Shown: one piece after another, positions 1 through 18,785 of the stretch
How positions within the stretch are numbered: the stretch's first letter is position 1
Layout: every line of letters starts with the position of its first letter
Assembly: GCA_965223545.1 (NCBI GenBank)
Contig: OZ245006.1
Span: 7,360,001 to 7,424,000, forward strand
Length of the DNA: 64,000 nt
Direction of reading: 5' to 3'
DNA from: Planctomycetota bacterium
Lineage (GTDB): Bacteria > Planctomycetota > UBA1135 > UBA2386
Notes under the pieces: model-generated
Seen by the model: the letters and a program-made list of their open reading frames with translations, nothing else
Database searches by the model: none
Told to the model about the DNA's origin: nothing
Made by a program: the position numbers and the translations under genes

Positions 1-17
1 GAACGTTGCGCGGCTCA

Positions 18-1250
18 CTAGAACACTGTCTCGAGCCACAGGGCGATCGGCAGCTCGAGCAGCCACCAGTGCTGCGACGAGCCGAAGTGGTCGACGTGTG
101 CGAACTGCTCGATCGACTGGAAGGTCACGTCCGCCGAGCTCAGCTGGGCGGGCAGCTCGTCCATGACGGAGCCGAAGCCGAGTCCGGCTTTGATGACGAG
201 GACCTTGCCGGTGAAGGCCGCCAGGTTGTCGCCGTACTGCGGGACCACGCCGGCGAGGCCGCCGTACAGGTCGCGCAGGATGCCGATGGAGATCGAGTCG
301 TTGAAGACGGCGACGTTGGCGAGCAAGCGCTCCTCGTCCGAGTAGACGAGCTCACCGGCCGGAACGTCGCCGACGGCGGAGATGAAGCCGGGGCGGGGTG
401 ACGGGGCGAGTGGGTTGGGTACTGACATCACCGCGACGAACGCCTGCATGTTCGTGAGGCCGGGCGGGAAGCCGGGAACCGGCAGCGCGAAGGGATCGTT
501 GGGCGCGATCGTCGCGAGCTGGCCGACCTGTTTGACCAGGGGCAACGACTGGTCCTCGAAGGCGATCCCCGCCGCGAGCATCGCATCGAGCTGCTGGTAG
601 AAGCCCAATGCATGGGTTTGCACCGCGACGTCGGTCGTCGTCACCGCGCCCTCCCACGCGAGCACGCCGGCGTAGTCGTTGGGGGAGGCATCCACCACGG
701 CGAGCCCGGTGGTCGCGCCCATCGACAGGCCGCCGACGACCGGCAGGCAGCCCGGCTGGGCCGCGGCGATCTGTGTCCGAATGTAGGCGACGTCGTCGAG
801 CACGGTCTGCAGCGTCCAGCCGAGGGCCGCTGAGCAGTCGACGCCACCGAAGCACGCACCGGCAGCCACGTTGGCGCTGCGCGGTGAGTAGCCCCACACG
901 TCGTAGCCGATGCGGGCGAAGAACCCGGCGAACGACCAGCTTGGGTCGCCGCTCTCGTGCACGAGGTACTGTTCGAAACGGTTGCCGAGCGGCGGCAGCA
1001 GTAGGAGCACGCCCCGCGTGCCGGCCCCGGCGCGCTGGACGCGGTGCATGGTGAAGCGGTTGAGGGGATTGGCGCCCTCTTGAACCACGGTGTCCGTCAG
1101 TTGGAGGCTGCCGAACGCCAGCGGCTGTAGCTGCGTGTTCTGGCTGACGACTGCGTACTGGGCCGTGCCCGCGTCGGCGAGCGTGAAGCACGACAGGAGG
1201 CCGGAGAGCAGCCAGGGGAAGGCGCGAGTGCGCGAGTGCGAACGGAACAT
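18..1250 (-). CDS. Secreted alpha/beta-hydrolase fold protein
   Basis: C-terminal part of ORF 18..1946, starting at ATG 1250 (MFRSHS) with a signal-peptide-like N-terminus. Has a GLSMG nucleophile elbow, an 'RIGYDVWG' segment and a C-terminal AHVDH His motif. Confidence 0.75.
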   Translation of the reverse strand: MFRSHSRTRAFPWLLSGLLSCFTLADAGTAQYAVVSQNTQLQPLAFGSLQLTDTVVQEGANPLNRFTMHRVQRAGAGTRGVLLLLPPLGNRFEQYLVHESGDPSWSFAGFFARIGYDVWGYSPRSANVAAGACFGGVDCSAALGWTLQTVLDDVAYIRTQIAAAQPGCLPVVGGLSMGATTGLAVVDASPNDYAGVLAWEGAVTTTDVAVQTHALGFYQQLDAMLAAGIAFEDQSLPLVKQVGQLATIAPNDPFALPVPGFPPGLTNMQAFVAVMSVPNPLAPSPRPGFISAVGDVPAGELVYSDEERLLANVAVFNDSISIGILRDLYGGLAGVVPQYGDNLAAFTGKVLVIKAGLGFGSVMDELPAQLSSADVTFQSIEQFAHVDHFGSSQHWWLLELPIALWLETVF

Positions 1251-1439
1251 GGGTCCTCTCGGATCAAGGAGTCTGTGGTCGGGATGTCGCGAGCTGCGAT
1301 CCCAGTAGTTCGTCCACCCGCGGTCAGACGCCGCTGTCACGCGCGGTTCGAGGAATTTTGGCGACCCGAGATTCGTGCGGCATGTGGCGGATGCGTCCGC
1401 ACTGGTGCGTTGTTCGTGTGTTTCCCAAACGAGACTGTC

Positions 1440-2165
1440 ATGCAAACGCAGCAACGGGTCTCTGCATCGTTGCAAGCCAACGCCACGCAGCGGTTGCGCC
1501 ACGACGCGCCCACCTCTGGGCGACGACCGAGCACCGGCGCGGCGCCTCCGCAATTGGCACCAGAGTCGGTGGATCCGGAGGAACGTCGCGCCACCGAGCG
1601 CTACCTGGAGCGGCAGTTCGCCGTGCTGCGCCGGCGGCACAGCGCACAGAACGCGATCCTGCTGCGTGTCGTCGCCGACCACTGTGCGCACGCCGTGGCT
1701 CTGGCCAAGCGCGGGGCGTTGGCCGATGCCCGCACCCAACTGACGACCCTCGATGGGTTGGCGCCGTGCCACGATGTGGAACTCCGGGCCGTGCATGGCA
1801 TCGTGGCACTGCCGGCCTGGGCCCTCGTCGAATGGCGGGAGCAACAGCACGCCCGCGCGCAAGGGTTGCTGCGCCAAGCGATCGAGCTCTGTGGTTGGCT
1901 CGCGGGTGATCGCGGCCACGATTATCTGACGGGCAAACGGATCCACCTCGCCGCCAATACGGGTCGCGTTCTGGTCTCACAGCGACAGTTCGGGGAGGCG
2001 CGCGCATGCGTGCGCGCGCTGCGTGCGGTGTTGGCCGGGGATCGCAGCGCCTGGTGCTTCGCATCGCCGGAGAGCCTGGTCCTTCCGCTGGTAACGGGGC
2101 AGGCGACGGGGCTCGCCCGACAGCTGGACCGAGTCGCGGCGCTTTGTCGGGAGGGCGGGCGATGA
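1440..2165 (+). CDS. Hypothetical alpha-helical (TPR-like) protein, first gene of the lanthipeptide operon
   Basis: From ATG 1440 within ORF 1236..2165; start uncertain. Ala/Leu/Arg-rich helical pattern. Its TGA overlaps the lanL ATG (ATGA 2162-2165). Confidence 0.6.
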   Translation: MQTQQRVSASLQANATQRLRHDAPTSGRRPSTGAAPPQLAPESVDPEERRATERYLERQFAVLRRRHSAQNAILLRVVADHCAHAVALAKRGALADARTQLTTLDGLAPCHDVELRAVHGIVALPAWALVEWREQQHARAQGLLRQAIELCGWLAGDRGHDYLTGKRIHLAANTGRVLVSQRQFGEARACVRALRAVLAGDRSAWCFASPESLVLPLVTGQATGLARQLDRVAALCREGGR

Positions 2166-4912
2166 CCGGCGCCGACCCCGTACGGGCGGCGGCGCGCCGA
2201 CTCGCGGCTGAGGACTTCCTGCGCGGCTGGACGGTGCGTGCGCAACCCGCGTCTTCGGCTCTTCACGCCGGCGCCGCCGGCGCCGACTTCTGGACCAGCT
2301 ACAGCGCGCCGAACGCTCGGGAAGCGAGCAGCGGATTCAAGATCCACGTATCTGCCAGCATCGCGTCGGCAGCCGACGTCCTGTTGCGCGCCGCGCCCGC
2401 GTTCGGACGCATGGGCGTGCCTTTCAAGCACGCCAGCTCACTGGACCGCCTGGCGACGTTGTCCAGCGGCGCGGGTGGCGCCACCCAGGTCGGCAAGTTC
2501 TTGACCGCGTATCCGCCGGACCCGGAGACCGCGCGCCGTCTCGCCGACCGACTCCACGAGCTGACGCAGGGGTTGCCCGGTCCGCGCATCGCGTCGGAGC
2601 AGCAGTTGTGTCCCGGCAGTCTGGTGCACTACCGCTATGGTGCATTCGTCGAGCAGTGGTTGCAGCTACCGACCGGGCGGATCGCGCCGGCGCGGCTCGG
2701 GCCGCGCGGGCTCGAGCCCGACGAGCGCGGCGCTGGCCCCGGCGATGGCGCGCCGCCGAGTCCGTTCGGCGCTCCGACGGATGGCGTCGATGGCGAGACG
2801 CGCACCCTGCTGGCGGAACGCTACGTCCGCATGCGCCCCTTGCACGAGAGTCCCAAGGGCAACACTTGGCTGGGGTTCGATCAAGACTCCGCGCCTGCCG
2901 AGGACCCGGAACGCCGCGCGATGGTCGTGATCAAGGAGGCGTTCGCGTTCGTGATGGAGGCGAGCGATGGCCTCGACGCGGTGCGCCGCTTGGAGCGGGA
3001 GGCGCTGCGCATCCGCGCGCTCCAGGACAGCGGGCTGACGCCTGTGTTCGTCGACTACTGGCGTGAAGTGGACCGGGCGTTCTTGGTCTATCGACTGGTC
3101 GAGGGTCCGACTCTGGCCTCGATCATCAACTCCCTGCGCGATGAGGGACTTTCGCCACCCGCGACTCTGTTGCGCGATTGGGCCCAGCGCCTGGCGGACG
3201 CCGTCGCCGAGGTCCACGGCCGCGGCTTCGTGCTCGGCGACATCAAGCCGTCGAACATCGTGTTTGCCGATGGGGGGTTTCGTTTCATCGACCTGGAGCT
3301 CGCCGGCACACCGACCACGGCGCCGTGCGGCGGGATGGGGACACCCGGCTACTGCTCCCCGGAGCAGGCCGATCCCGACGTGGGCCGCAGCTTCCAGCAA
3401 GACGTCTACAGCATCGGCGCGACCTTGTTGGCGGCGTCGACTCTCACTGATGCATCGTCGCTGCCGGACCTCTCGGCGGTCGCCGCCGCCGAGTCGCGCC
3501 GCCACGGTGCGCCGATCCACGCGTTGATTCGGCAATGCCTGGCGCGTGACCCCGGGAGCCGGCCGGAGTCTGCCGTCGATCTCGCTGCCCGCTGTCGCGC
3601 GCTCGATGGAGTGCCGGCCGCGGTGCGCGATACCGTCGTTGACGCCCAACCGGGTGTCGACTTCGGTCAGCTGGCCGCGGACGTCGGTGACCTCCTTCTC
3701 CACGCCGCGCGGAGCGACGGGAGCTACACGTGGTGGGAGTCCGGTCACGCGACGGTGGGGCTGCGCGCGGTGCGCGATTTGTACGCAGGCTCGTGTGGGA
3801 CCGCCTTGTTCCTGTGGGAGCTCTACGAGCAGGGCGGCGACGAGCGCTACTTGGACGCGGCCCGCCGCTGCGGTGAGTGGCTGTGGCGCACCGATCCCGA
3901 GGTGCCTCGACAAGTGGAGATGCCGGGCCTGTACTTCGGCGAGGCCGGTCCCGGGCTGCTGTACCTGCGCCTTCACGAGGCGACTGACGAGCCCGTGTGG
4001 CTGACCCGCGCTCGGCGCGCGAGCGCACGCGTGGCGGCCATGCCGCACCACTCGCCGGACCTGATGACCGGTGCCGCCGGCAGCGGCCTGTTCCACCTGG
4101 CGCTGTGGAGTACTGCGGGTGATACGGATGCCCTGGACCGCGCGCGGTGGGACGCTGCTTGGCTGCTCGACCGGCGGGTCGGCGGGCGTCCCTCGTGGGC
4201 GATCCCGCCCGAGCACGAGACCTTGAGCGACACCGAGTACTTGGGCTTCGCGCACGGTTCCGCCGGGATCGGCCATTTCCTCGCCGAGTTGTGTGCGGCA
4301 GCGCCGGACCCGGCGTTGCGGCAAGCGTGCGCGGAGACCGCAGATTGGCTGCTCGAGCACGCGCAGCCGTGCCTCCCCGATCAACGCGGGTTGCGGTGGC
4401 CGAACTCGCCTGGCGACAGCGCTGGAATCGGCGTCTACTGGTGTCACGGCGCCGCTGGAGTGGCGCGCTTCCTGGCGCACGCCGGTGTGGTCCTGAACGA
4501 CGCACGGTATCTCGACGCCGCCATTGGTGCCGCACGCAGCATCGCCGCGGCGCGCTGGAGCGGCACCACGCAGTGTCACGGTTTGGCTGGCAACATCGAT
4601 GTGTTGGTCGACGTTTGGCAGTGTGTAGGCGGCCGGTGGCTGGACGTTGCGCGGAATCTCGGCCAGGACCTCTTGCTCTATCGGACCGAGCGCGGCTGGC
4701 CGTCCGAGTCGTCCCTCGTCTACAGCCCGGACCTGGTCGTCGGTCAGGCCGGCGTCGGTGCCGCGTTTGCGCGCTTGGCGGCGCCTCACCGACAACACGT
4801 CGTGACGGCAAGAGTGTCCCGCGGTTGCGGACCGGCTGAAGGTCAGTCGGTTGCGCCACCGCTCACCGCAAGAGAGTTCGCTCTCCAAAGGAGTAGCCAT
4901 GCCAAACTGTGA
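2162..4912 (+). CDS. lanL: Class IV lanthipeptide synthetase (lyase - Ser/Thr kinase - LanC-like zinc cyclase)
   Basis: Lyase motifs GFKIHVSA, GKFLTAYP, VHYRYGAF. Kinase motifs VVIKEA, GDIKPSN, FIDLELA, GTPGYCSPE. Cyclase GxxG repeats DLYAGSCG, GLYFGEAG, DLMTGAAG, GFAHGSAG, WCHGAAG, QCHGLAG, with the Cys/Cys/His zinc ligands intact. Confidence 0.93.
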   Translation: MTGADPVRAAARRLAAEDFLRGWTVRAQPASSALHAGAAGADFWTSYSAPNAREASSGFKIHVSASIASAADVLLRAAPAFGRMGVPFKHASSLDRLATLSSGAGGATQVGKFLTAYPPDPETARRLADRLHELTQGLPGPRIASEQQLCPGSLVHYRYGAFVEQWLQLPTGRIAPARLGPRGLEPDERGAGPGDGAPPSPFGAPTDGVDGETRTLLAERYVRMRPLHESPKGNTWLGFDQDSAPAEDPERRAMVVIKEAFAFVMEASDGLDAVRRLEREALRIRALQDSGLTPVFVDYWREVDRAFLVYRLVEGPTLASIINSLRDEGLSPPATLLRDWAQRLADAVAEVHGRGFVLGDIKPSNIVFADGGFRFIDLELAGTPTTAPCGGMGTPGYCSPEQADPDVGRSFQQDVYSIGATLLAASTLTDASSLPDLSAVAAAESRRHGAPIHALIRQCLARDPGSRPESAVDLAARCRALDGVPAAVRDTVVDAQPGVDFGQLAADVGDLLLHAARSDGSYTWWESGHATVGLRAVRDLYAGSCGTALFLWELYEQGGDERYLDAARRCGEWLWRTDPEVPRQVEMPGLYFGEAGPGLLYLRLHEATDEPVWLTRARRASARVAAMPHHSPDLMTGAAGSGLFHLALWSTAGDTDALDRARWDAAWLLDRRVGGRPSWAIPPEHETLSDTEYLGFAHGSAGIGHFLAELCAAAPDPALRQACAETADWLLEHAQPCLPDQRGLRWPNSPGDSAGIGVYWCHGAAGVARFLAHAGVVLNDARYLDAAIGAARSIAAARWSGTTQCHGLAGNIDVLVDVWQCVGGRWLDVARNLGQDLLLYRTERGWPSESSLVYSPDLVVGQAGVGAAFARLAAPHRQHVVTARVSRGCGPAEGQSVAPPLTAREFALQRSSHAKL
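4888..4893 (+). promoter_or_regulatory. Shine-Dalgarno site for the precursor gene
   Basis: AAGGAG lies 5 nt upstream of ATG 4899, inside the 3' end of lanL. Confidence 0.75.
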
Positions 4913-5297
4913 TCCGGAAAAGCGTCCGGAAGATGATCTAGACCTCGTCGCGCGCGTCATGGAGACCGTGCACCGCCAAGTCGGTAGCTACATGACGTCG
5001 CTGCAACAGCTGCGCACCGTGCGTCGCGAGATCGAAGTCAATCCCAACCTTCGCAAACGCGTGACCTCGGGATCGAGGGAGATGGTCAAGGTGCTGGTGG
5101 AGCGTGGTGTGCCGGAGCCGTTGGCCGCCGGCATGTCCGCCGAAGACTGGCGCGACCTCGATCTCGCCGGCAGCCTGGGTCTGTGGACCTGGGACTGCTG
5201 CTGCACCGGGTGTTGTCTGACGTGCATCTGCACGCAGAACACCTCGGCCGTCGCCAATCCCGGCGAAAGCGTGATCAATCCTCAGATCGGGCGCTAG
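4899..5297 (+). CDS. lanA: Putative lanthipeptide precursor (132 aa; long leader, Cys/Thr-rich core)
   Basis: Strong RBS and a 14-nt overlap with lanL. C-terminal region DLDLAGSLGLWTWDCCCTGCCLTCICTQNTSAVANPGESVINPQIGR has 7 clustered Cys and several Thr/Ser. Confidence 0.85.
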   Translation: MPNCDPEKRPEDDLDLVARVMETVHRQVGSYMTSLQQLRTVRREIEVNPNLRKRVTSGSREMVKVLVERGVPEPLAAGMSAEDWRDLDLAGSLGLWTWDCCCTGCCLTCICTQNTSAVANPGESVINPQIGR

Positions 5298-5307
5298 CGC
5301 CCGGCGG

Positions 5308-5346
5308 CGGTGGTGCGTGCCAGCCAGCTTGTGGCGCGCACCGCCG
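5308..5346 (+). terminator. Stem-loop downstream of the precursor (terminator or mRNA stabiliser)
   Basis: CGGTGGTGCGTGCCA (5308-5322) pairs with TGGCGCGCACCGCCG (5332-5346): 15 bp with 2 G-U pairs and a 9-nt loop. Only a weak U-tail follows. Confidence 0.55.
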
Positions 5347-5456
5347 GCCCTGTTGCGTGATCTCGGGCTCACCCCTCGAGAAGCGGCGCTCTTCTGCCAC
5401 AATGGAGGTGTCGGGCCGCGGGCACGACGAGTCGCCCGGCGCCGCGAGGACGATGC

Positions 5457-8015
5457 ATGACGGAATCAGGGACGTGGCGCAAGAGCGTCATCGGCTTGGC
5501 GGCGACGCTTTTTGTCACCGTGGGTTGGGTTCTCGTGCGCCCGGAGGGCCCGGCTCCGGCCCGTGCACCAGCATCACCGGAAACGAACGATTCCGCGCCG
5601 GCTCGACCAGAGCGCCGTTCTGGTCCAGGCGCGAAGCGCTCGTGGCGGGGGCGTGCGCTGGAGGCTCGCCGCTGGCTGCGGGTCGTCGATGCGACCTCGG
5701 GTCGGCCGGTGCCTGGTGCCACCGTGCGCTTCGGAGTGCTGGGCGCGCTCGACGAGCTCGATCCAGACCGGTGGCGGGCGGCGCAAGAGCTGCGTCGGCG
5801 TGACGTCGAGGAGTTCTTGCGCGTTCACGGCGCATCCTCGACGGCCGACCCCGACGGGTGGCTCGTGTCTACTCGGGAGCCGGGGTGGCCGCGCACGGCC
5901 CGCCTGGGATCGCGCTACGGGGAAGCGGATCCCGACGGCTCCGGCGACATCGCGATCGCGCCGGACCGGTCGTTGCGCGTGCGCGTGCTCGATGTCGAGG
6001 GAGCTCCGGTCTCGGGGATCGACGTCGCGCTCGGTATCGATCGGTCTTCGGATGTTCCTCCCGGAGGGTTGAACGCGTCGGTGGCGGTGACAAACGAGGC
6101 GGGCGAGGCAAGCCTGCCCCACGTCGGGCTGCTCGCCGCGCGGGCGCGCGGACACGGCGTTGGCACTCTGTTGCTGGCGCCGGGGATCGCTGGCTCGGCC
6201 AGCGTGGGGCTCGGGCTGGTCATTCGCCCGCCGGCTTGGCCATCGGAGCCGGTCGTCCTGCGGCTGCCCGCCTGCCGCACGGTGATCGTGACGCTCCGCG
6301 GCCCGGATGGCACACGCTTCCCGATGTCCGGCCGCGGGGACGAGTTCGTCTCCCTGCGCGTCGAAACGACACCGCAGGGGTACGACACGGCCGACCTGGT
6401 CGGCGGAGTCGCGCGGTTTGCTCGAGTGCCCCTCGGCGTCGGGCTCACCCTGTCCGCACACGTCGCGGGGTTCGAGGCCGAGCGCCGGTTGCCGCCGTCG
6501 ACGGGCCGGGCCATGGCGGAGTACGTCGAGCTGCAGTTGCGATCTTCCGCCCCGGTCTACGCGGTCCGCGCGGTGGGGGCCGACCGTCAGCCCTTGGCGG
6601 ATCGGTTGCTCTCCGTCGCGGTGCCGGGGTTCGTGGCGAGTCTCCGGCGGAGGACCGACGCCGCGGGGAGGCTGCTTGTTCCCCTGCCGCGTGACGAGGA
6701 CAATGACTTCGAGGACGCAGTGCTGCGACTGACGACGCTGGCGTTGCGGCACGACACCAATGGCCGGGAACTCGCGCCGGAGCTCGGTACCGAGCGGGCG
6801 GCGGTGCGATTGCCCCCGGCAGCGCATGGCTCGGTCACGGAACTCGGCGACGTTGCCCTCCTACCGCTTCCGCTGCTCGCCTCCGGCGTGATCCACGCCG
6901 CGCCATCCGCGCTGGCGGACGACTGGTCGCGCCACGCGATCGCGACGGGGATCGCGGTCGATGAGCTCCGCCTCACCGAGCAGGGCCGTTCATGGCATCG
7001 GCGGGAAGACGTGGTCGTGCGCGTCGCGCCAACCGGCGCGTTCGCGGTGCACGGAAGCCGAGGCCGCGCCGCACTCCGGCTGAGAGACGTTCGCCGGCGA
7101 GTCGCTCCGTTCGCTCCGGTACCGTTTGTTCCCGGCGCCGCCGGACTCGAGTTGCAGCTCCCGACGCCCGGCAGCCTCGAGATCGACGTGGTCCCCGCCG
7201 CGCGCGACGAACTCGCGCTCCAGCTCGAGCCGCTCGATCGTTGTTGGCCGGAGCACGATTCCCGCGACCTGCGTCGAGTGCGCCCATCGTCCCGCGTCCG
7301 GCGTCCCGAGCGGCCACACCGCGACGTGCACGTGCTGCCGTGGCTGTGGCCTGGGTCGTATCGAGTCAGCGCCCATCTGCGCGGGCTCGCCGCGCCCTTG
7401 ACGATTCTGGACCGCGTCGAGATCCGCGCCGGAGAGCGCACCCGCCCGTGGCTTTCGTCGCCGTTGGATCCGGCCGCGGTCGCGCGGCGGGTGGACGTGC
7501 AGCTCGCCGACGCGAGTCGCCGTTCCTCGTCCCGGGCAACCCTCCGGTTGTGGGTGCGGGATCCGACACCCCGCGCGATCTCGTTGGCGGCAGGGAATCG
7601 GCAATGCTGGCTGCCCTTCACCGTCGATGAGGGCGTGCTCGACGTCCGCGGCCGCTGCCTCACGATCTGGCGGCCCGAGGCCCAACCCGTCGCCGTGCCT
7701 TCGCTGTTCGAGGTCGAACTGCGTCTTCCCGCGGACGTGACCAGCGCGCGGCTCGAGGTTGTTCGCGACCATCCGTTGTATTCGTGGCGGGATGTTCCGC
7801 AGCTCCGCACAGCGTTACGGCTCGACGTGGTGCGCGGCACCCAGAGAGTCCGATGCCGCGCACCAGGCCCTTGGGTGTTGACTTTGGCCCGCGGTGGCGG
7901 GCAACCGACATCCGTCGACGTCGTTCTGGCGCCCGCACACGCCGGGCGAGTTCTTGATCTGACGAGTACCGCTCCGACGCTTCGAGTATCATCGGGGCAG
8001 GTAGGAAGATCATGA
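5457..8015 (+). CDS. Membrane-anchored hypothetical protein with carboxypeptidase-regulatory-like beta-sandwich repeats
   Basis: N-terminal TM segment. Repeats LRVVDATSGRPVPGATV, VRVLDVEGAPVSGIDV and VRAVGADRQPL. ATGA overlap with the next gene. Confidence 0.6.
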   Translation: MTESGTWRKSVIGLAATLFVTVGWVLVRPEGPAPARAPASPETNDSAPARPERRSGPGAKRSWRGRALEARRWLRVVDATSGRPVPGATVRFGVLGALDELDPDRWRAAQELRRRDVEEFLRVHGASSTADPDGWLVSTREPGWPRTARLGSRYGEADPDGSGDIAIAPDRSLRVRVLDVEGAPVSGIDVALGIDRSSDVPPGGLNASVAVTNEAGEASLPHVGLLAARARGHGVGTLLLAPGIAGSASVGLGLVIRPPAWPSEPVVLRLPACRTVIVTLRGPDGTRFPMSGRGDEFVSLRVETTPQGYDTADLVGGVARFARVPLGVGLTLSAHVAGFEAERRLPPSTGRAMAEYVELQLRSSAPVYAVRAVGADRQPLADRLLSVAVPGFVASLRRRTDAAGRLLVPLPRDEDNDFEDAVLRLTTLALRHDTNGRELAPELGTERAAVRLPPAAHGSVTELGDVALLPLPLLASGVIHAAPSALADDWSRHAIATGIAVDELRLTEQGRSWHRREDVVVRVAPTGAFAVHGSRGRAALRLRDVRRRVAPFAPVPFVPGAAGLELQLPTPGSLEIDVVPAARDELALQLEPLDRCWPEHDSRDLRRVRPSSRVRRPERPHRDVHVLPWLWPGSYRVSAHLRGLAAPLTILDRVEIRAGERTRPWLSSPLDPAAVARRVDVQLADASRRSSSRATLRLWVRDPTPRAISLAAGNRQCWLPFTVDEGVLDVRGRCLTIWRPEAQPVAVPSLFEVELRLPADVTSARLEVVRDHPLYSWRDVPQLRTALRLDVVRGTQRVRCRAPGPWVLTLARGGGQPTSVDVVLAPAHAGRVLDLTSTAPTLRVSSGQVGRS

Positions 8016-10576
8016 ATCCGAGTCGAAACTGGAGTGCGAGCAGCCTCGGCGGCCTCGCGGTTCTCTTGGTTCTCGTGCATGCCCGCGCGCAAGATCCGTT
8101 CGCGCAGCTCAGCACCCGGCCCTTGCCCTTTGGCCAGCCTGGCATCGGAGCGACGGGAGACATCGACGGCGACGGCGACCTCGATTTGCTCCTCCCTCTG
8201 CCGCGCGGTCAGGACCGGCTGTTGCTCAACGACGGCGACGGTGTCTTCACCGAAGTCACCGCCACGCACATGCCGCCCGACACGCGTGGGACGCGTTCGG
8301 CGACCTTCGTCGACGTCGATGGCGACGGCGACCTCGATCTGGCGCTGGCCGGCGATACCACGGGGTTGTTCGGCGAACAGAACCGGCTGCTGCTCAACGA
8401 CGGTGCGGGCAGCTTCACCGACGTCACCTCAGCCCAGCTGCCCGCCGACAGCGATGCGACGCCACAAATCGTCGCGTTCGACGTCGACGCCGACGGCGAC
8501 CCGGACTTGCTGTGCTGCAGCAGCGAGACCGGCATCAGTACCCCCGGCCAGAACCGGCTGTACCTCAACGACGGCGCCGGGTCGTTCACCGACGCGACCG
8601 CGACCCACTTACCCGCGGAGCCCAGCGACTGCCGTCACGCGAAGGTTGGCGACCTCGACGGTGACGGCGACCTCGATTTCGTCACCGCGACGGGGGAGTA
8701 CAACGAGCCCTTGCGCGTCCACATCAACGACGGCACGGGTCGATTCGTCGTATCTCGTGCGGGCGCACTGCCAGCGCTCACGTCTCTCGGTGCTCGCTCG
8801 TTGTTCCTGGCCGATATCGAGAGCGACGGTGACCTCGACATTCTGACGCGCGCGGGTCGGTTGACGGTGCTGGTCAATGACGGAACGGCGCGGTTTCGGG
8901 ACGAGACCGCGGCTCGGTTGCCCAGCGATGGGTCGCTCTACGTTCAGGGCGACTTCGACCGCGACGGGGACGTCGATTTCACCGCGTTCGCATACCCGTC
9001 GACCGGGGCTTTCTCGTTCCTCGAGAACGACGGTAACGGCTTCTTTCAGTTCACTGGCGCGCTTCCGACCGGCGGCGAAGTCGCGGCCGACTTCGATGGT
9101 GATGCCGATCTGGACCTACTCTGGGCGAGCTCCTTCGACATCCTCCTGAACGACGGGAGTGGCAGCTTCTTCGACCGCCGGCAGGCCGAGCGCCGGGGGC
9201 CGGATTTCGTCGGTTGGCCACGGCGGGCGGCCTTGGCGGACGTGGATGGCGATGGCGACCGTGATGCCTTCTTGACGAGTCAGACCCTCGACAGCGATCG
9301 GCTTCTGCTGAACGACGGCCGCGGCGTGTTCACCGACGCGCCGCAGCCCCTGCCGCAGAATGGTCGTTCGCACACTGTCGCGCTCGGTGATGTCGACGGG
9401 GATGGCGACGTCGATGCGGCGATTGCCGCCAATGGCGTGACCCGGCTCCTGCTGGGCGATGGTGCGGGTGGGTTTACGGAAGTCACCGCCACGCACATGC
9501 CGCCGTTGTCGACGAACACCCAGGATCTGGAGCTGGCCGACTTCGATGGGGACGGTGACCTCGACTTGGTGGAGGCCAACTGGTTCTCCTCCAGCGCGCT
9601 TCTGCTGAACGACGGCAGTGGTCGGTTCAGCCTGGGGGCCAACCTGTCGAGCACCTCCCGCCGCACACGAGCTGTGGCTTCGGTCGACATCGACGGAGAT
9701 GGCGACTTGGATTTGGTCTTCGGCAACGACTGGGATCCTGCGACCTTGTTTCGCAACGACGGTCCCGCGGGCTTCGTCGACGTAACCACAACCCAGCTCC
9801 CTGGGGCCGCGGCGAACGCGTTCGATCTCGTCGCCGCAGATGTGGATGGCGACGGTGATTCCGATCTCGTCTTCGTGGTGTTTGCCTACCAGGCGCAGAG
9901 CTCGACGCTGTTCGTCAACGACGGTGCCGGGACGTTTGTCGATGCTACGGCGGGGCGGTTGCCGGCGACGATGTCGGGTTGGCACGTGCACGCCCTGGAT
10001 TACGACGGCGACGGCGACCTCGACTTGGTGTCCGGCGGCTCCGATGGGCTGTCCGTACTCGAGAACGACGGCCAGGGCCGCTTCACAACAGCGCAGTCGC
10101 TGGCCGTGCTCACCTGGCAGAGTTTCGCGCCCGAGCTCCACCCGGTGGCCGCTGGCGACGTCGACGACGATGGCGATGCCGACCTGCTGCTCGCGATCAC
10201 GGACGGCCCCATCGACGTGGCGACCAACCTGCGCCGTCAGCTGCACTTCGCGCGGTTGGTTCGCCCGGGTCGCGTTGCCCAGCTCGACATCTACGCGGTT
10301 GGCCGGCCAGCGGTTTCGGCGATGGCGCTCCCGTTCCTGTCGGCCGGTGCCGGCCGACTGCCGCTCGCGGGCCTCGGCGTCCTCGGTCTCAACCCGATCC
10401 AGCTCTTGCCCCTGTCCGCGGCCCAGATTCCCGCGGCAAACCACGTGGGCTCGGCGGTGTTCGGTGTGCCAGCGACCTCGAGCTTGATCGGCGCGGAGGT
10501 GTTTGCCCAGGCCGTGCTGGTCGAGGGCAGTCGCATGTGGCTGACCAACACGCAAGGCCAGCGCGTGATCCAGTAG
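8012..10576 (+). CDS. Secreted FG-GAP/VCBS repeat protein
   Basis: Signal peptide (ARA-Q), many GDxDGDGDLD...LLLNDG repeats and the shared C-terminal domain. Confidence 0.9.
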   Translation: MNPSRNWSASSLGGLAVLLVLVHARAQDPFAQLSTRPLPFGQPGIGATGDIDGDGDLDLLLPLPRGQDRLLLNDGDGVFTEVTATHMPPDTRGTRSATFVDVDGDGDLDLALAGDTTGLFGEQNRLLLNDGAGSFTDVTSAQLPADSDATPQIVAFDVDADGDPDLLCCSSETGISTPGQNRLYLNDGAGSFTDATATHLPAEPSDCRHAKVGDLDGDGDLDFVTATGEYNEPLRVHINDGTGRFVVSRAGALPALTSLGARSLFLADIESDGDLDILTRAGRLTVLVNDGTARFRDETAARLPSDGSLYVQGDFDRDGDVDFTAFAYPSTGAFSFLENDGNGFFQFTGALPTGGEVAADFDGDADLDLLWASSFDILLNDGSGSFFDRRQAERRGPDFVGWPRRAALADVDGDGDRDAFLTSQTLDSDRLLLNDGRGVFTDAPQPLPQNGRSHTVALGDVDGDGDVDAAIAANGVTRLLLGDGAGGFTEVTATHMPPLSTNTQDLELADFDGDGDLDLVEANWFSSSALLLNDGSGRFSLGANLSSTSRRTRAVASVDIDGDGDLDLVFGNDWDPATLFRNDGPAGFVDVTTTQLPGAAANAFDLVAADVDGDGDSDLVFVVFAYQAQSSTLFVNDGAGTFVDATAGRLPATMSGWHVHALDYDGDGDLDLVSGGSDGLSVLENDGQGRFTTAQSLAVLTWQSFAPELHPVAAGDVDDDGDADLLLAITDGPIDVATNLRRQLHFARLVRPGRVAQLDIYAVGRPAVSAMALPFLSAGAGRLPLAGLGVLGLNPIQLLPLSAAQIPAANHVGSAVFGVPATSSLIGAEVFAQAVLVEGSRMWLTNTQGQRVIQ

Positions 10577-13164: not shown

Positions 13165-15822
13165 TTACCGGATCGCGACGTCTACCGTGGTGTTGGTGAG
13201 TCGTGGCTGGTAGGGATACGGCAGGATGAGCGCCTGCGCGTGCCCCGACAGGCCTGCGAGGGCCGGCCCGCGGGGCACCTGGAGGTCCAGCCTCGCCACT
13301 CCCGCGGCTTTGGGAATCACGACGGGAGGCAGCTGCACCATCTGCGTGGGAGCGAGGCCGAACACACCGAACGGCGGCACCGAGAACGAGGCGGTGGCCG
13401 CGGCGAAGAAAGGGACGGCAGCGTCGATCAGGCTGGGTGCGCCCCTGCGGGCATAGATGTCGAGCTGAAACGCCTGGCCGGGGCGGAGCAGGTGGGGAGT
13501 GTCGATCTGGCGGAGCAGGTTTGTGTAGAGGCGGTTGGGCGCGTCGAGATTGCCGACCACGATGTCCACGTCGCCATCGCCGTCGAAGTCGCCGAGTGCG
13601 ACGGCGTTCGTGGCATCGCGGTCGTCCGGAATGAGGGCGCCGGTCGGGTCTCGGAAGGTGCCGGTCCCATCGTTCAGCGAGATGAAGGTCTGCGCCCAGG
13701 TCGCCCGGACCAGGTCGAAGTCGCCATCGCCGTCCACATCGCCGAGCGCCACGCTCGTCGTGGCGAAGTTGGTTTGTGGGAGTGCGGTGGGACTCGCCGC
13801 CGAAAACGTGCCCGCGCCGTCGTTGAGGTAGAGGTGATCGCTGGCTGCGGCGCCGAGCGCGATGTCGAGGTCGCCGTCACCGTCGACATCTCCGAGCGCG
13901 CCGGCGTGGGTGACGAAGGCGCTGGCTGGCATCTGGGCTGCAGTCGCATCCGAGAACGTACCAGCACCGTTGTTCAGGTAGAGCCGCACGGGGCCCGGGG
14001 CAACACCGTCGGAGCCCAGAATCATGTCGAGATCGCCGTCCCGGTCCACGTCTCCCAGCACGACGAACGAGGTCTCCTCCTGGTCGACCGGCATGCGCCC
14101 CACGCTCACGTCCGCGAAGAAACCGGTTCCGCTGTTGGCGAGGAGCTGGTCTTGCTGGAAAGAGTTGCCGACGACGAGGTCGAGGTCGCCGTCACGATCG
14201 ACGTCCCCGAGAGCGACGGATCGGGTGTTGCTGCAAGTGTTGGGGAGCGCTGCCCTCCCCGCGGCCGAGAAAGCGCCGGTGCCATCATTCAACAGCAAGC
14301 CGTTTTGGCCGGTTCCGAAGCCGTAGAGGCACGACACTGCGCTGTGCCCGATCACCAGGTCGAGGTCGCCGTCGCCGTCGATGTCTCCGAGGGTCAACGC
14401 GTGCGCGGTCACCGTCGACACCACACTGTCGGTGAACGTTCCGTTGCCGTCGTTGCGGCACAGCCGGTTGCCCGGCTGGCCCCCGGCCGAGTCGTTGCCA
14501 AACAGCAAATCCAGGTCTCCGTCGCCATCGACATCGCCGGCCGCCATCGACAACGTGACGTCGGACAGGCGCTCGATGCTGTGCGCGGTTGCATCGATGA
14601 GCCCGCCGGAGCCATCGTTGATGCACAGCTGGTTTGGCCCCGGGCCGTTGGCGGCGACGAGGTCGAGGTCTCCGTCGGCGTCGACGTCGGCGAAGACCGC
14701 TGCCCGCGAATGCGCGTCGTCGAACGGCAGACCGGCCGTGTCGGCGTAGTTCCCACTGCCGTCGTTGGCGAGCAGGCGGTTCTGGCCGCTGCCACCCCCC
14801 GTGGCCCTGCCGTTCGCCATGAACAAGTCGAGGTCGCGGTCGCCGTCGACGTCGGCGAGGACGACTGCGCCGGTGAACCCAGCGCGGCCGCGGGGCAGGC
14901 GCGCCGCGGTTGCATCGCTGAAAACGCCGAGCCCGGTGTTGAGCAGCAGCATGTTCTCGCCAAAGCTCCCGACGACGACGTCGAAGTCGCCGTCCTGGTC
15001 GGCGTCTCCGACCGTGATGGAGAAGACCCAAGGCCACCACTGCGTCAGGTCGGGCGCACGCCCAGCGGTGCCATCGACGAACGTGCGATTGCCGTTGTTG
15101 AAGTACAGCCGAATCGGTCGCATGCCTCCGCCGAGCACGAGGTCGAGGTCGCCGTCGGCGTCGATGTCGGCAGCCGCCAGCGCCGGCGTGTCGTCCGACT
15201 CCGTCGGCATCCAGGTTGCCGTCGCGTCCGAGAAGCGCCCGGTGCCGTCGTTGAGGTAGAGTCTGTCCTGCCCGCGGAAGTCGTTGCCCAGCGCGATGTC
15301 TAGGTCGCCGTCTGCGTCGAAGTCCGCAGCCGTGAGGGCACGCGTCGGGTCTCGATCTGGCGGAAACTGCAGTAGGGTGGCGTCGGCGAATGCACCCGTG
15401 CCGTCATTGAGGAGCAGTCGATTCTGGCCGAAGTTGGCGAGGACGAGATCCAGGTCACCATCGGCGTCGACGTCGCACAACGCCGCCGCCGTCGTGTCGT
15501 CCGGGTGGCTGGGCAATCGGCCAGCGCTCGCGTCGGAGAACACCCCTGCGCCGTCGTTGAGGTAGAGCCGATTGGGGCTACCGACGTTCGTGACCACCAG
15601 ATCGACGTCGCCGTCGCCATCGATGTCGCCCCGCGCGACGCCGCGCGAGTTGTCGTCGTCCCGCGGCAGTCCACGTCCGGCGAGCTCGGCGAACTGGTGC
15701 TGGGCGGCAGCAGTTGCGGTGACGACGAGGGCGATGGTTGCCGCCCGGACAGCACCCACACCGATCTCTGCGCGGCCGTGGCCGCAACCAGAGATCCCGA
15801 TTGGGTTGGTCGGCGTGATCAA
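13165..15822 (-). CDS. Secreted FG-GAP/VCBS repeat protein (tandem paralog B)
   Basis: GDVDGDGDLD repeats and an AAA-QHQF signal cleavage site. Start may be TTG 15822 or GTG 15759. Confidence 0.9.
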   Translation of the reverse strand: MITPTNPIGISGCGHGRAEIGVGAVRAATIALVVTATAAAQHQFAELAGRGLPRDDDNSRGVARGDIDGDGDVDLVVTNVGSPNRLYLNDGAGVFSDASAGRLPSHPDDTTAAALCDVDADGDLDLVLANFGQNRLLLNDGTGAFADATLLQFPPDRDPTRALTAADFDADGDLDIALGNDFRGQDRLYLNDGTGRFSDATATWMPTESDDTPALAAADIDADGDLDLVLGGGMRPIRLYFNNGNRTFVDGTAGRAPDLTQWWPWVFSITVGDADQDGDFDVVVGSFGENMLLLNTGLGVFSDATAARLPRGRAGFTGAVVLADVDGDRDLDLFMANGRATGGGSGQNRLLANDGSGNYADTAGLPFDDAHSRAAVFADVDADGDLDLVAANGPGPNQLCINDGSGGLIDATAHSIERLSDVTLSMAAGDVDGDGDLDLLFGNDSAGGQPGNRLCRNDGNGTFTDSVVSTVTAHALTLGDIDGDGDLDLVIGHSAVSCLYGFGTGQNGLLLNDGTGAFSAAGRAALPNTCSNTRSVALGDVDRDGDLDLVVGNSFQQDQLLANSGTGFFADVSVGRMPVDQEETSFVVLGDVDRDGDLDMILGSDGVAPGPVRLYLNNGAGTFSDATAAQMPASAFVTHAGALGDVDGDGDLDIALGAAASDHLYLNDGAGTFSAASPTALPQTNFATTSVALGDVDGDGDFDLVRATWAQTFISLNDGTGTFRDPTGALIPDDRDATNAVALGDFDGDGDVDIVVGNLDAPNRLYTNLLRQIDTPHLLRPGQAFQLDIYARRGAPSLIDAAVPFFAAATASFSVPPFGVFGLAPTQMVQLPPVVIPKAAGVARLDLQVPRGPALAGLSGHAQALILPYPYQPRLTNTTVDVAIR

Positions 15823-18446
15823 CGGATCAGGACGTCGGTGGTCGCGTGGGTGAGGCGCGCTGAGTAGGGATACGGAATGATCAGCGCCTGAGCGTGACCG
15901 GACAGGCCGGTGAGCACCGGGACGTTGGGCACGCGCAGCTGCAGTGACGTCAGCCCGGCGGGTTGGGGGATCACCACCGGGGGCAGTTGCACCATCTGCG
16001 TCGGAGCGAGACCGAGCACTCCGAATGGCGGTACGGGCAACGACGCCGGCGCCGTGGCGAAGAAGGGGGCGGCGACGTCGAGCAGGTTTGGCCGGCCCTG
16101 CCGGGCGTAGAGGTCGAGCTGGAACGCGTGGCCGGGGCGCAGGAGGTAGGGAGTGTCGATCTGTCGGAGCAGGTTCGAGTAGATGCGGTTGTGGGTATTG
16201 AAATTGCCTACCGTGATGTCGAGGTCGCCATCCCCATCGAAATCACCGAGCGCAACGCCGGTCGTGCCGTCGTTGTGGTCGCCGAGGAGCGTGTCGGTCG
16301 CGTCTTGATAGACGCCAGTGCCGTCGTTCAGGTAGATGTACGTCTTCGTCCAGGTTGCCCGCACGATGTCGAGATCGCCATCGTCGTCGAGGTCACCGAG
16401 CGCCATGCTCATGGGACTTCCGCGGGCTGGTGGAAGTGCAGCGGGACCCGCCACCGAGAAAGTGCCGGCGCCGTCGTTCAAGTAGATGCGATCGGTGCGT
16501 GCGTTGCAGAGGACGATGTCGAGGTCGCCGTCACTGTCGACGTCTCCGAGTTCGCCGTCGCAGGTGAGCGATGCGATCGCTGGCATCCGGGTTGCTGTTG
16601 CATCCGAGAAGACGCCGGTGCCGTCGTTCAAGTAGAGCCGAATCGCGCGAGCGACATACCCGTTGGCGCCGAGAACCAGGTCGAGGTCGCCGTCTCGGTC
16701 GACGTCGCCGAACGTTGCGAACGATGTCTCCTGGACGTCGACCGGCATGTGCGTCGTGGTGGCATCCGTGAACGTCCCGGTGCCGTCATTGCAGAGGAGT
16801 CGGTCTTGCTCGTAGTAGTTGCCGACTACCAGATCGAGATCCCCGTCACGATCGACGTCGCCGAAAGCAACCGATCTCGTGTTATCGCAGATCGCCGGCA
16901 ACTGCCCACTGCTGGCGGGAACGAACCCGCCGGTCCCGTCGTTGAGCATCAGGCTGTTCTGTCCGTAGCTTGGGCCATACACGCAGTACCAGCCATCCTG
17001 CCCGATCGCCAAGTCGAGATCGCCATCACCGTCGACGTCCCCTGCTGCAAGCGCATGTGCATCCCCGCCGATGGCCGTCCAGTTCGTGAACACGCCGCTG
17101 CCGTCGTTAATGCAGAGACGGGTCCGCGGTAGAAGGCCCTTGTACGTGTCGTTGCCGAAGACGATGTCGAGGTCTCCATCGCCATCCATGTCGGCCGTTG
17201 CCAGCGACAAGGTGGTGTCGAATAGCCGGTCGAGTCGCGGTGCCGTCGCGTCGAAGAACCGGCCGGTGCCGTCGTTGATGTTCAGCTGGTTCAGGCCGAT
17301 GCCGTTGGCGGCCGCGAGGTCGAGGTCGCCGTCGGCATCGACGTCGGCGAAGACGGCGCTTGCCGTAGCTGCATCGTCGAACGGGAGGAGGCTGGTGCCA
17401 TCGGTGTAGCCGCTGGGTCCCTGGTTGATCAAGAGCTGGTCTTGACCACGACCCGAACTCTCAGCCGTCGCGAGGAACAGATCGAGGTCGCGGTCTCCGT
17501 CGATGTCGCCGAGGAGGACCGCGCTGGTAAGCCAAGTTCTGCCTCCCGGCAGCAGCGTTGCGGTCGCGTCAGTGAAGGTGGCCGTGCCGTTGTTCAGCAA
17601 CAGCATCGTCTGGCAGAAGCTGCCGATCACGAGATCGAGATCGGCGTCCTGGTCGACATCGCCGATCGCGAAGGAGGAGACGTAGGGCCACCATTGGCTC
17701 AGGTTCGGCACGCGCCCCGACGTCGTGTCGACAAACGTGCGATTGCCGTTGTTGATGTACAGTCGAACCGGCCGCGTGGCGCCGCCGAGCACCAGGTCCA
17801 GGTCACCGTCCGCGTCGAGATCTGCGGCGGCCACCGCAGGCGTGTCGTCCGATTCGGTCGGCATCCAAGTGGTCGTTGCGTCCGAGTATCGACCGGTGCC
17901 GTCGTTGAGATAGAGCCGGTCCTGCCGGCCTGCGTCGTTGCCGAGGGCGAGATCGAGGTCGCCGTCGCCGTCGAAGTCCGCGAGCGCGATCGCCTTGGTC
18001 TTGTCTCGATCGCCTGGCAGCCGCGCCGCGGTGACGTCCGTGAACGTGCCCGAGCCGTCGTTCACGAGGAGGCGGTTCTGACCATCGCTGGCAAACACCA
18101 CGTCGAGGTCGCCATCGGAGTCGAGGTCGCCCAGTGCCACGGCCAGGGTGGAGTGCGCGGCGACTGGCATGCGGGTAGCAGTGCCATCGGAGAAGACCCC
18201 TGCACCGTCGTTGAGGTAGAGCCGATCTTGGCTGTTGCGGTTGGCGAGGATCAGGTCGACGTCACCGTCGCCGTCGACGTCGCCCTGCGCGATGGCGGTC
18301 GATGCGTCGTCGATCGTCGGCAGCCCCCGCTTGGCCAGCTCCACGAACTGGTGCTGCGCGGCGGCGGACACGGCGATCGAGACGAGGGCGAGCAGGGCGT
18401 GCACAGCGCCCGTGCAATGAATCTCGGGGCTGGTCGGTGATGCCAT
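15819..18446 (-). CDS. Secreted FG-GAP/VCBS repeat protein (tandem paralog A)
   Basis: From ATG 18446. AAA-QHQF cleavage site; colinear with the 13165..15822 paralog. Confidence 0.9.
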   Translation of the reverse strand: MASPTSPEIHCTGAVHALLALVSIAVSAAAQHQFVELAKRGLPTIDDASTAIAQGDVDGDGDVDLILANRNSQDRLYLNDGAGVFSDGTATRMPVAAHSTLAVALGDLDSDGDLDVVFASDGQNRLLVNDGSGTFTDVTAARLPGDRDKTKAIALADFDGDGDLDLALGNDAGRQDRLYLNDGTGRYSDATTTWMPTESDDTPAVAAADLDADGDLDLVLGGATRPVRLYINNGNRTFVDTTSGRVPNLSQWWPYVSSFAIGDVDQDADLDLVIGSFCQTMLLLNNGTATFTDATATLLPGGRTWLTSAVLLGDIDGDRDLDLFLATAESSGRGQDQLLINQGPSGYTDGTSLLPFDDAATASAVFADVDADGDLDLAAANGIGLNQLNINDGTGRFFDATAPRLDRLFDTTLSLATADMDGDGDLDIVFGNDTYKGLLPRTRLCINDGSGVFTNWTAIGGDAHALAAGDVDGDGDLDLAIGQDGWYCVYGPSYGQNSLMLNDGTGGFVPASSGQLPAICDNTRSVAFGDVDRDGDLDLVVGNYYEQDRLLCNDGTGTFTDATTTHMPVDVQETSFATFGDVDRDGDLDLVLGANGYVARAIRLYLNDGTGVFSDATATRMPAIASLTCDGELGDVDSDGDLDIVLCNARTDRIYLNDGAGTFSVAGPAALPPARGSPMSMALGDLDDDGDLDIVRATWTKTYIYLNDGTGVYQDATDTLLGDHNDGTTGVALGDFDGDGDLDITVGNFNTHNRIYSNLLRQIDTPYLLRPGHAFQLDLYARQGRPNLLDVAAPFFATAPASLPVPPFGVLGLAPTQMVQLPPVVIPQPAGLTSLQLRVPNVPVLTGLSGHAQALIIPYPYSARLTHATTDVLIR

Positions 18447-18785
18447 GCTTGGGGGCGGTTCCTGTACTCGATCATACGGGTTCTGGTTCCGCACTGCCCC
18501 TTGTGGCAAAGCAGCAGGCCGCCGGAAGCGCTCCAGACTCAACAGCTCTCGCGCTGCGATTGCTCGGTGACTGGCAAGGCGGAGCCATCGACGGACGTCA
18601 GCGGGTGGGACTAGGCCTTCAAACCGCTCCGGCAGAATCGGCATCTGAGTTTGGTTGCGGCCGTGGCCGCGCTGAGCGCTGTAAGTCCGAGATGCGGACG
18701 TCGAGATCGTAGTCCTCGCCGTCGGTTACGGGCACGGCGAGCGCATGACTAGCATCACCGCCTGATGGGCCGCTGGGCCCGGCGA

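Follow-up and report, generated by a model that had tools for sequence, protein, structure and literature searches.

A compact three-gene cassette was identified in a 64,000-nucleotide stretch of a Planctomycetota bacterium genome (assembly GCA_965223545.1, contig OZ245006.1, positions 7,360,001 to 7,424,000; this whole stretch is called the window). It encodes a Cys-rich precursor peptide, the class IV lanthipeptide synthetase LanL and a protein with a tetratricopeptide repeat (TPR) fold. The precursor gene belongs to a family that is linked to LanL, its core is conserved and the catalytic motifs of the synthetase are intact. We consider it quite probable, on comparative sequence grounds, that the precursor is the dedicated substrate of the adjacent LanL in a self-contained cassette, and that the product is cytoplasmic and of lanthivirin type in its way of working. 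An earlier, sequence-only reading had already proposed a ribosomally synthesised and post-translationally modified peptide (RiPP) precursor that goes with a LanL of class IV, a proposal that is upheld here. The remainder of its interpretation is partly supported, and it mentioned neither the TPR-fold partner nor the match of the core to the lanthiphage motif discussed below. The elements of the cassette are as follows.

1440..2165, forward strand: TPR-fold accessory protein P0043, 241 amino acids, from its predicted fold and its status as a conserved partner of LanL
2162..4912, forward strand: class IV lanthipeptide synthetase LanL, 916 amino acids, with lyase, Ser/Thr kinase and Zn-type cyclase domains
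4889..4893, forward strand: Shine-Dalgarno-like AGGAG, 5 nucleotides 5' of the precursor ATG and inside the 3' end of the LanL gene
4899..5297, forward strand: precursor gene P0001, 132 amino acids, from its translation and homologues
5184..5246, forward strand: putative core W96-S116, in which C100-C-C-[TS]-x-C-C106-x-T108 is near invariant and T97-C109 fits TxDxCxxxCxxxC

Translation of 4899-5297 agrees with the earlier description of a 132-residue open reading frame containing seven Cys within 12 residues, five Thr and a W-x-W. The start codon is backed by the AGGAG sequence and by homologues that open with an identical MPN. The Cys residues lie at positions 100-111, accompanied by Thr 97, 103, 108, 112 and 115, Ser116 and W96-x-W98; T103 and T108 are the only Thr residues between the first and last Cys. 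The reading frame did not arise by chance, since it has 14 close homologues (E 1e-47 to 6e-31) and matches 21 proteins at E<=0.001 in a library at 50% identity, with further homologues down to around 30% identity. Among the 21, P0027 is an unrelated repeat protein, while P0029, P0033, P0034 and P0036 are without the core through truncation or frameshift. All core counts refer to 40 distinct sequences with a complete core, from 31 proteins and 9 loci, leaving out these five library hits and L018, a candidate locus rejected as a chance match to the core only.

As expected by the sequence-only reading, the Cys/Thr pattern is conserved in homologues. C100 and C106 occur in all 40 sequences, C102 and C105 in 39 each and C101 in 38; T/S103 is kept in 39, T108 in 38, T97 in 37, W98 and D99 in 34 each and C109 in 22. 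The same reading held that Cys outnumber Thr. Counted from T97 to six residues beyond the last Cys, Cys exceed Ser plus Thr in 26 of the 40 cores (with a surplus of one in 16, of two in 9 and of three in a single case), equal them in 9 and fall below them in 5. The direction of that claim is right for most members, the surplus, usually one or two, being smaller than the impression it gave. It is clearest in short distant members, which have 5 Cys and 2-3 Ser/Thr; across T97-S116 of P0001 itself, 7 Cys stand against 6 Ser/Thr. Given this excess, some core Cys probably stay outside thioether rings, and the earlier suggestion that the product combines methyllanthionines with disulfides or metal-binding free thiols is plausible.

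Family members are 99-149 amino acids long, 29 of the 40 exceeding 120. No Pfam or NCBIfam family covers the precursor, and a Foldseek search of the PDB with its model gave no match at E<=0.001. VIA-align yielded a best Z of 4.7, and Atlas matches at 0.80-0.81 serve as leads only. No sigma-70 promoter or terminator match was found for the cassette. Among the sequencing runs listed, no RNA run carries the sequence; one DNA contig is identical to window 1-9000, possibly being the assembly's own source, and no joint skipping the cassette was seen among the contigs listed.

The LanL protein is, as judged from its domains and motifs, a divergent class IV synthetase of the Zn type with its predicted catalytic motifs intact. 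The assignment follows from its three domains (RamC_N, 1.7e-35; Pkinase, 1.6e-12; LANC_like, 1.3e-43) and from retention of the lyase residues of VenL and the cyclase residues of SgbL. Residue roles are taken from the available text of PMC8341899 and PMC9292228.

Within 2162..4912, forward strand: predicted lyase residues K60, H62, K89, K112, Y117, E146 and R158, by alignment to VenL
Within 2162..4912, forward strand: predicted kinase residues K258, E280, D360, K362, N365 and D377, by motif mapping
Within 2162..4912, forward strand: predicted cyclase residues D633, H698, C761, C805 and H806, by alignment to SgbL

Residues K51, H53, K80, K103, Y108 and R149 of VenL map to LanL at a constant offset of +9 and are invariant in 8/8 aligned rows. 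The five cyclase residues, corresponding to the Cys-Cys-His zinc ligands and a catalytic His and Asp and described as essential in SgbL in the available text of PMC9292228, are invariant in 9/9 rows. LanL identity within the cassette family is 43-51%, and only 30% to a named plasmid LanL.

Searches of genomes, metagenomes and plasmids gave 17 usable loci. A LanL-like sequence adjoins the precursor in 16 of them and the TPR gene is present in 13; elsewhere the contig stops before the gene would be reached, and no informative locus is without either gene. Two gene orders are seen, TPR-LanL-precursor and precursor-TPR-LanL, and in one locus (L002:4787-8014) TPR protein and LanL are fused in frame as a single 1075-residue reading frame. 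In the window the TPR stop overlaps the LanL start (ATGA), with translational coupling, and LanL overlaps the start of the precursor. Each genome that was checked holds one copy of each cassette gene. Across 9 loci, the pairwise identities of any one of the three genes track those of the others (Mantel 0.46-0.79, p<0.01), as would be expected for any co-inherited block.

The cassette is rare, with 5 loci in a pattern scan of 185,579 genomes, and among 401 genomes of the window's phylum the precursor is found only in its own. Where the host has a name, the cassette belongs to a Thermoanaerobaculia genome, to Actinomycetota genomes, to Nocardioides sp. URHA0032 or to the Rhodococcus oxybenzonivorans plasmid pRB98; the precursor, with its context unseen, also occurs in Bradyrhizobium sp. 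B117. Viral contigs contained 93 stretches with the core pattern, none of which was confirmed as a precursor.

Flanking genes vary between loci. Among the 50 genes that flank the cassette most closely at 7 loci, no peptide ATP-binding cassette (ABC) exporter or peptidase is shared, and no C39 peptidase-transporter was found among the flanking genes at any locus examined. It is this want of a conserved exporter or peptidase that makes a cytoplasmic product the most likely outcome. On pRB98 (L108:11262-21325) the complete cassette has a pair of genes, for an S8 peptidase and a hydrolase-like protein, on one side and a PDDEXK nuclease gene on the other, and IS5 and IS30 elements lie nearby; the annotated LanC-family coding sequence there begins after the lyase domain and the match extends upstream. 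At L012:581-1597 a precursor leader runs into histidine-kinase-like sequence, without a core, in what is probably a chimeric contig. Downstream of the cassette the window encodes three large proteins that carry FG-GAP repeats and have a C-terminal domain in common (8012-10576, 13165-18644), for which no link to the cassette was seen.

Conservation of the TPR protein begins near residue 45, and Q59, R66, H67, E114, H160, H169, N173, R176 and W205 are invariant or nearly so, N173 being kept in 24 and R176 in 25 of 25 family members. Fold searches with its model returned generic TPR matches from Z 13.9 downward, including PlcR at 13.1, with Atlas matches likewise generic. A PlcR-like regulator identity was set aside because of this generic character. 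Prediction of a complex between TPR protein and precursor scored 0.12 against a mark of 0.32, which is no evidence either way. Scans for the TPR gene found it in 1 of 301 genomes, the centre genome, and found two distant homologues (HHalign 97%) in 401 genomes of one genus. Since both adjoin a Cys/Thr peptide gene and a kinase-LanC gene, the family looks lanthipeptide-specific, independently of the lanthivirin parallel considered below. At these two loci (L113:9421-14398 in G955; L114:5410-10393 in G881) the TPR homologue is divergently oriented to an open reading frame of 111-115 residues, containing Cys and Thr, with an N-terminal core-like segment. A reading frame of 350-400 residues without a Pfam family and a kinase-LanC protein, to which it is likewise divergent in orientation, complete a split lanthipeptide-type system with the same TPR family.

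Three further features of the precursor concern the regions on either side of its core.

4926..5039, forward strand: long conserved N-terminal leader helix, residues 10-47, lying outside NHLP/Nif11 models; predicted local distance difference test (pLDDT) 91-95 over residues 11-50
5007..5126, forward strand: NHLP/Nif11/LigA-like helical leader module, residues 37-76, by HHalign at 79%
5247..5294, forward strand: Cys-free C-terminal tail, of low model confidence, variable in length and sequence and absent in several homologues

The sequence-only reading gave the leader about 90 residues, in keeping with the 95 that precede W96, and likened it to long helical leaders of NHLP/Nif11 type. Prediction with high confidence gives one long helix over residues 10-47 and, over residues 49-84, three short ones. 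Compared with a profile of 23 NHLP-type segments, residues 37-76 gave an HHalign probability of 79% with a score of 33 over 37 columns; the reversed profile scored 18 and 60 column shuffles no more than 15. Best E values were 0.005 for Nif11 (PF07862; 2 of 31 proteins), 0.026 for TIGR03798 (3 of 31) and 0.099 for TIGR03793 (1 of 31), with none for P0001. The match to nitrile hydratase alpha is weak (E 0.05), as are fold matches to SonA, LigA, DesB, a borosin and a proteusin precursor (Z 3.2-3.8), and neither these nor the Nif11 match are significant alone. The resemblance that had been noted is thus borne out by the profile comparison together with these weak matches, and partial homology to the NHLP/Nif11 helical module is likely. 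The suggested scan with hidden Markov models (HMMs) of NHLP and Nif11 produced nothing above cut-off, the best E being 0.005, and no precursor among the 31 proteins tested reached the family cut-offs.

A double-glycine leader end, also suggested earlier, found no support in the comparison. The available text of PMC2887384 presents such an end as defining NHLP/Nif11 leaders, followed by a hypervariable core. The canonical motif, with hydrophobic L(-12)/L(-7), occurs in 0/40 members, and the core is conserved rather than hypervariable. Because the canonical end is missing, the leader is best described, from its sequence, as like an NHLP leader in its working, yet not a member of that family. Any G-G/A/S pair ahead of the core is found in 23 of the 40 members, and no cleavage consensus runs through them. 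The sole C39 peptidase-transporter of the window's own genome lies about 4.5 Mb from the cassette, beside a GG peptide of its own. That locus (L109:9945-13717) holds the separate double-glycine peptide, a C39 peptidase-ABC transporter and an HlyD-like gene, with no modifying enzyme seen. As described previously, the tail of P0001 is free of Cys over its last 21 residues. Its proposed function as a follower peptide is weakened, since the segment after the last Cys varies from 3 to 40 residues without family-wide conservation.

In the pathway that we favour, the folded leader, with its long helix and NHLP-like module, would dock the precursor on LanL, assisted by the TPR protein. The kinase would phosphorylate T97, T/S103 and T108, and probably T112/T115; the lyase would convert the phosphorylated Thr residues to dehydrobutyrines, and the Zn cyclase would close three to five methyllanthionine rings that overlap. 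Of the Cys, one to three would take no part in rings and would persist as free thiols, bind metal or form a disulfide. The TPR protein would be a partner dedicated to this biosynthesis, in the simplest case a subunit that presents the substrate or activates the enzyme. The product would not leave the cytoplasm; there it would be either shortened by general peptidases or kept on its leader, and would act like an intracellular modified peptide of lanthivirin type.

Several observations weigh against this scheme. The LanL protein scores below cut-off with both NF038150 (527 bits against 650) and NF038151 (305 bits); VenL W50 corresponds to F59, at a variable position, and VenL D137 is replaced by Glu in 7 of 8 rows. 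LanL is frameshifted in one locus (L004:8968-11530). Some loci are near copies (L007/L012, L005/L017), so that the number of independent cassette cases is nearer twelve. Gene context was seen for a minority of the protein-only homologues, the four short distant ones not being among them. An S8 peptidase lies two genes upstream of the cassette on the Rhodococcus plasmid, and an M1 peptidase, a TAP-like hydrolase and a major facilitator superfamily (MFS) transporter each occur near single other loci.

In a somewhat unlikely alternative, the product is an ordinary exported lanthipeptide, antimicrobial or signalling. Its leader would be cut at a G-G/A-G site or by aminopeptidases, the export machinery would be encoded elsewhere and the extra Cys would form extracellular disulfides. 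Class III/IV clusters are usually without a dedicated peptidase according to the available text of PMC8341899, and 23 members have the G-G/A/S pair ahead of the core. Another genome of the same phylum has canonical GG NHLP precursors with a similar W-rich CCC-T-x-CC core. These constitute three tandem genes (L115:9760-10902 in G047) with short cores of the form W-x-x-G-S-C-x-C-[TS]-P-C-C-x-C, beside a TolC-like gene; that genome (85% complete) gave no LanC-family match, in a search whose control was also without a match anywhere. Against export stand the complete lack of the canonical double-glycine motif in the family, the lack of a shared transporter and the fact that the genome's own C39 transporter already has its own GG peptide.

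It is unlikely, though consistent with several features of the family, that the cassette makes a metal-binding or redox device. LanL would then staple a compact scaffold, with the surplus thiols of C-C-C-[TS]-x-C-C serving as ligands for Zn, Cu or Fe, and the leader may never be removed, the mature form being a small modified protein. Of the conserved elements, the block of five Cys and two Thr is the oldest and persists in short distant members; the leader equals the core in conservation and has a confidently predicted fold, and the want of a cleavage consensus fits a leader that stays in place. Opposed to this are the size of the Cys surplus, which is one in 16 cores and nil or negative in 14, and the flanks scanned, where no metal-resistance or metal-uptake genes recur.

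A more specific proposal, which we regard as doubtful, is that the cassette is the equivalent, within class IV, of the anti-phage lanthivirins. A T97-C101 ring would form around Asp99, with more rings in the TxDxCxxxCxxxC register, the TPR protein would be a LanH-like sulfoxide enzyme and the product would block phage replication inside the cell. By the available text of 10.1101/2024.06.26.600839, anti-phage class I lanthipeptides have TXDXCXXXCXXXC in 57% of cores, a TPR-like accessory protein, few transporters and an intracellular action. T97-C109 fits that motif exactly, and the lack of a transporter and the TPR-like partner are shared. The motif is matched by 21 of the 40 members and by 11 more with one extra residue, while TxDxCxxxC is present in 33; a shuffled core fits in 0.4-0.5% of cases, and 11 of 16 FxLD cores fetched for comparison fit. 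This match was made after the fact and is easily approached by a Cys-rich core. Moreover, the best-conserved Cys, C100 and C106, lie outside the motif, C109 is kept in 22/40, the four most distant members have no TxD, and the precursor reaches only 0.5% against an FxLD profile.

As to the TPR protein, the available text of 10.64898/2026.08.26.747419 shows CoiH to be the enzyme by which the first ring is oxidised to a sulfoxide, with D59, N97, R100 and L332 as required residues, and a LanH-like protein of FxLD clusters has these residues at the same numbers. N97 and R100 of this LanH-like protein align with N173 and R176 of the TPR family. N-x-x-R is common in TPR helices, which weighs against a LanH-like interpretation of that pair, and D59 has no exact counterpart in the family. 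Comparison with a LanH-like profile was weak (HHalign 4-12%), and HMM ranks among the 5,637 proteins of the genome were non-significant (best E 0.029; best rank in reverse 34). A hand-made pattern present in 13/18 TPR, 10/12 LanH-like and 2/5,637 genome proteins was not counted as a test, because it was built from the alignment itself. The window's own genome has no FxLD-type methyltransferase or LanH, the best LphE-type score being 148 bits against a cut-off of 320.

Distribution offers the anti-phage proposal some encouragement, in that the cassette is patchily spread over several phyla, has one plasmid copy and has IS elements beside 2 of 8 long loci. A stand-alone SIR2-like protein with weak ThsA matches, a possible defence gene, lies about 4.7 kb upstream of the TPR gene in the own genome (L087:13487-14785). 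Set against this, 11 of 110 flanking proteins at 7 loci match PADLOC models, 9 of them through generic domains, leaving 2 plausible defence genes at few loci. No precursor copy was confirmed in viral contigs, and the available text of 10.1101/2024.06.26.600839 gives no defence-linked clade outside class I in Actinobacteria. At another locus, L003, the cassette is flanked by IS110- and IS3-type transposases, and an exonuclease with a TerB-like protein, matching the candidate defence model PDC-S48, lies about 4 kb upstream (L080:14611-15765).

The last alternative, that the peptide is no RiPP substrate and serves as a small structural or regulatory subunit (for example a Zn-binding partner) within a kinase-LanC module that signals or modifies proteins and has other proteins as its targets, draws on a core variability that is low for a RiPP family, a protein-like size and a stable predicted fold, and is very improbable in view of the N-terminal domain related to RiPP leaders, the Thr/Cys-rich C-terminus and the strict linkage to a complete LanL.

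Returning to the favoured view of a dedicated LanL substrate, comparison with known systems places the cassette closest to class IV as a variation on it, with a modest chance of an anti-phage role. With VenL/venezuelin, SgbL/globisporin and SflL it shares the lyase, kinase and Zn cyclase residues, a Thr/Cys-rich core and the lack of a dedicated peptidase. It differs from them in its 99-149-residue precursor, folded leader, three adjacent Cys and variable tail, in its conserved TPR partner (fused once), in having no shared transporter and in a LanL 30% identical to the named plasmid enzyme. To our knowledge, few class IV lanthipeptides have been characterised.

NHLP/Nif11 precursors (TIGR03793 and TIGR03798; OspA, DprE and MppE with LanM) are alike in the helical module at residues 37-76. 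The cassette precursor has an extra 38-residue N-terminal helix and is without the strand-rich second half and the canonical GG end; its core is conserved rather than hypervariable, it is single-copy, and its partner is LanL instead of the class II LanM, NHLP and Nif11 leaders being paired with class II enzymes in the available text of PMC7268733 and PMC12537861. Lanthiphages and lanthivirins (FxLD class I, e.g. coi, with LanH/CoiH) share the TxDxCxxxCxxxC motif, a TPR-like accessory protein and the lack of transporter and protease. The cassette differs in being class IV and not LanB/LanC, in having neither FxLD leader nor methyltransferase and no established profile homology, in its TPR protein (about 200 residues against about 370), in showing little sign of defence islands around the 7 loci scanned and in extending beyond Actinobacteria.

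In literature of mostly open-access coverage, no account was found of class IV systems in which a long leader of NHLP-like kind occurs together with a TPR partner, and the available text of PMC9576775 and PMC12715929 is silent on this family. For PMC7268733, one supplementary file contains no WDCCC, WTWD, URHA0032 or JIAV01, while its other supplements, or those of two preprints, could list the family; the available text of that large survey indicates that open reading frames above 120 residues were dropped. Because a long folded leader, a Cys-packed core and a helical partner without an export gene form a rare set, the cassette may represent an undescribed kind of cross-linked peptide, perhaps acting inside the cell.

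If, as we think doubtful, class IV came to the lanthivirin core register by itself or by inheritance and the TPR protein is a tailoring enzyme distantly related to LanH, which forms sulfoxides without a cofactor, there would be an intracellular anti-phage lanthipeptide outside class I and Actinobacteria, with a protein-like leader and free thiols, and the parallel would reveal the core features needed for anti-phage activity. Independently of this, the compact cassette in cultured strains (Nocardioides sp. URHA0032 and Rhodococcus oxybenzonivorans with pRB98) allows direct tests of how LanL reads a protein-like leader, of the choice of rings where three Cys are adjacent, and of the job of a lanthipeptide-linked TPR family.

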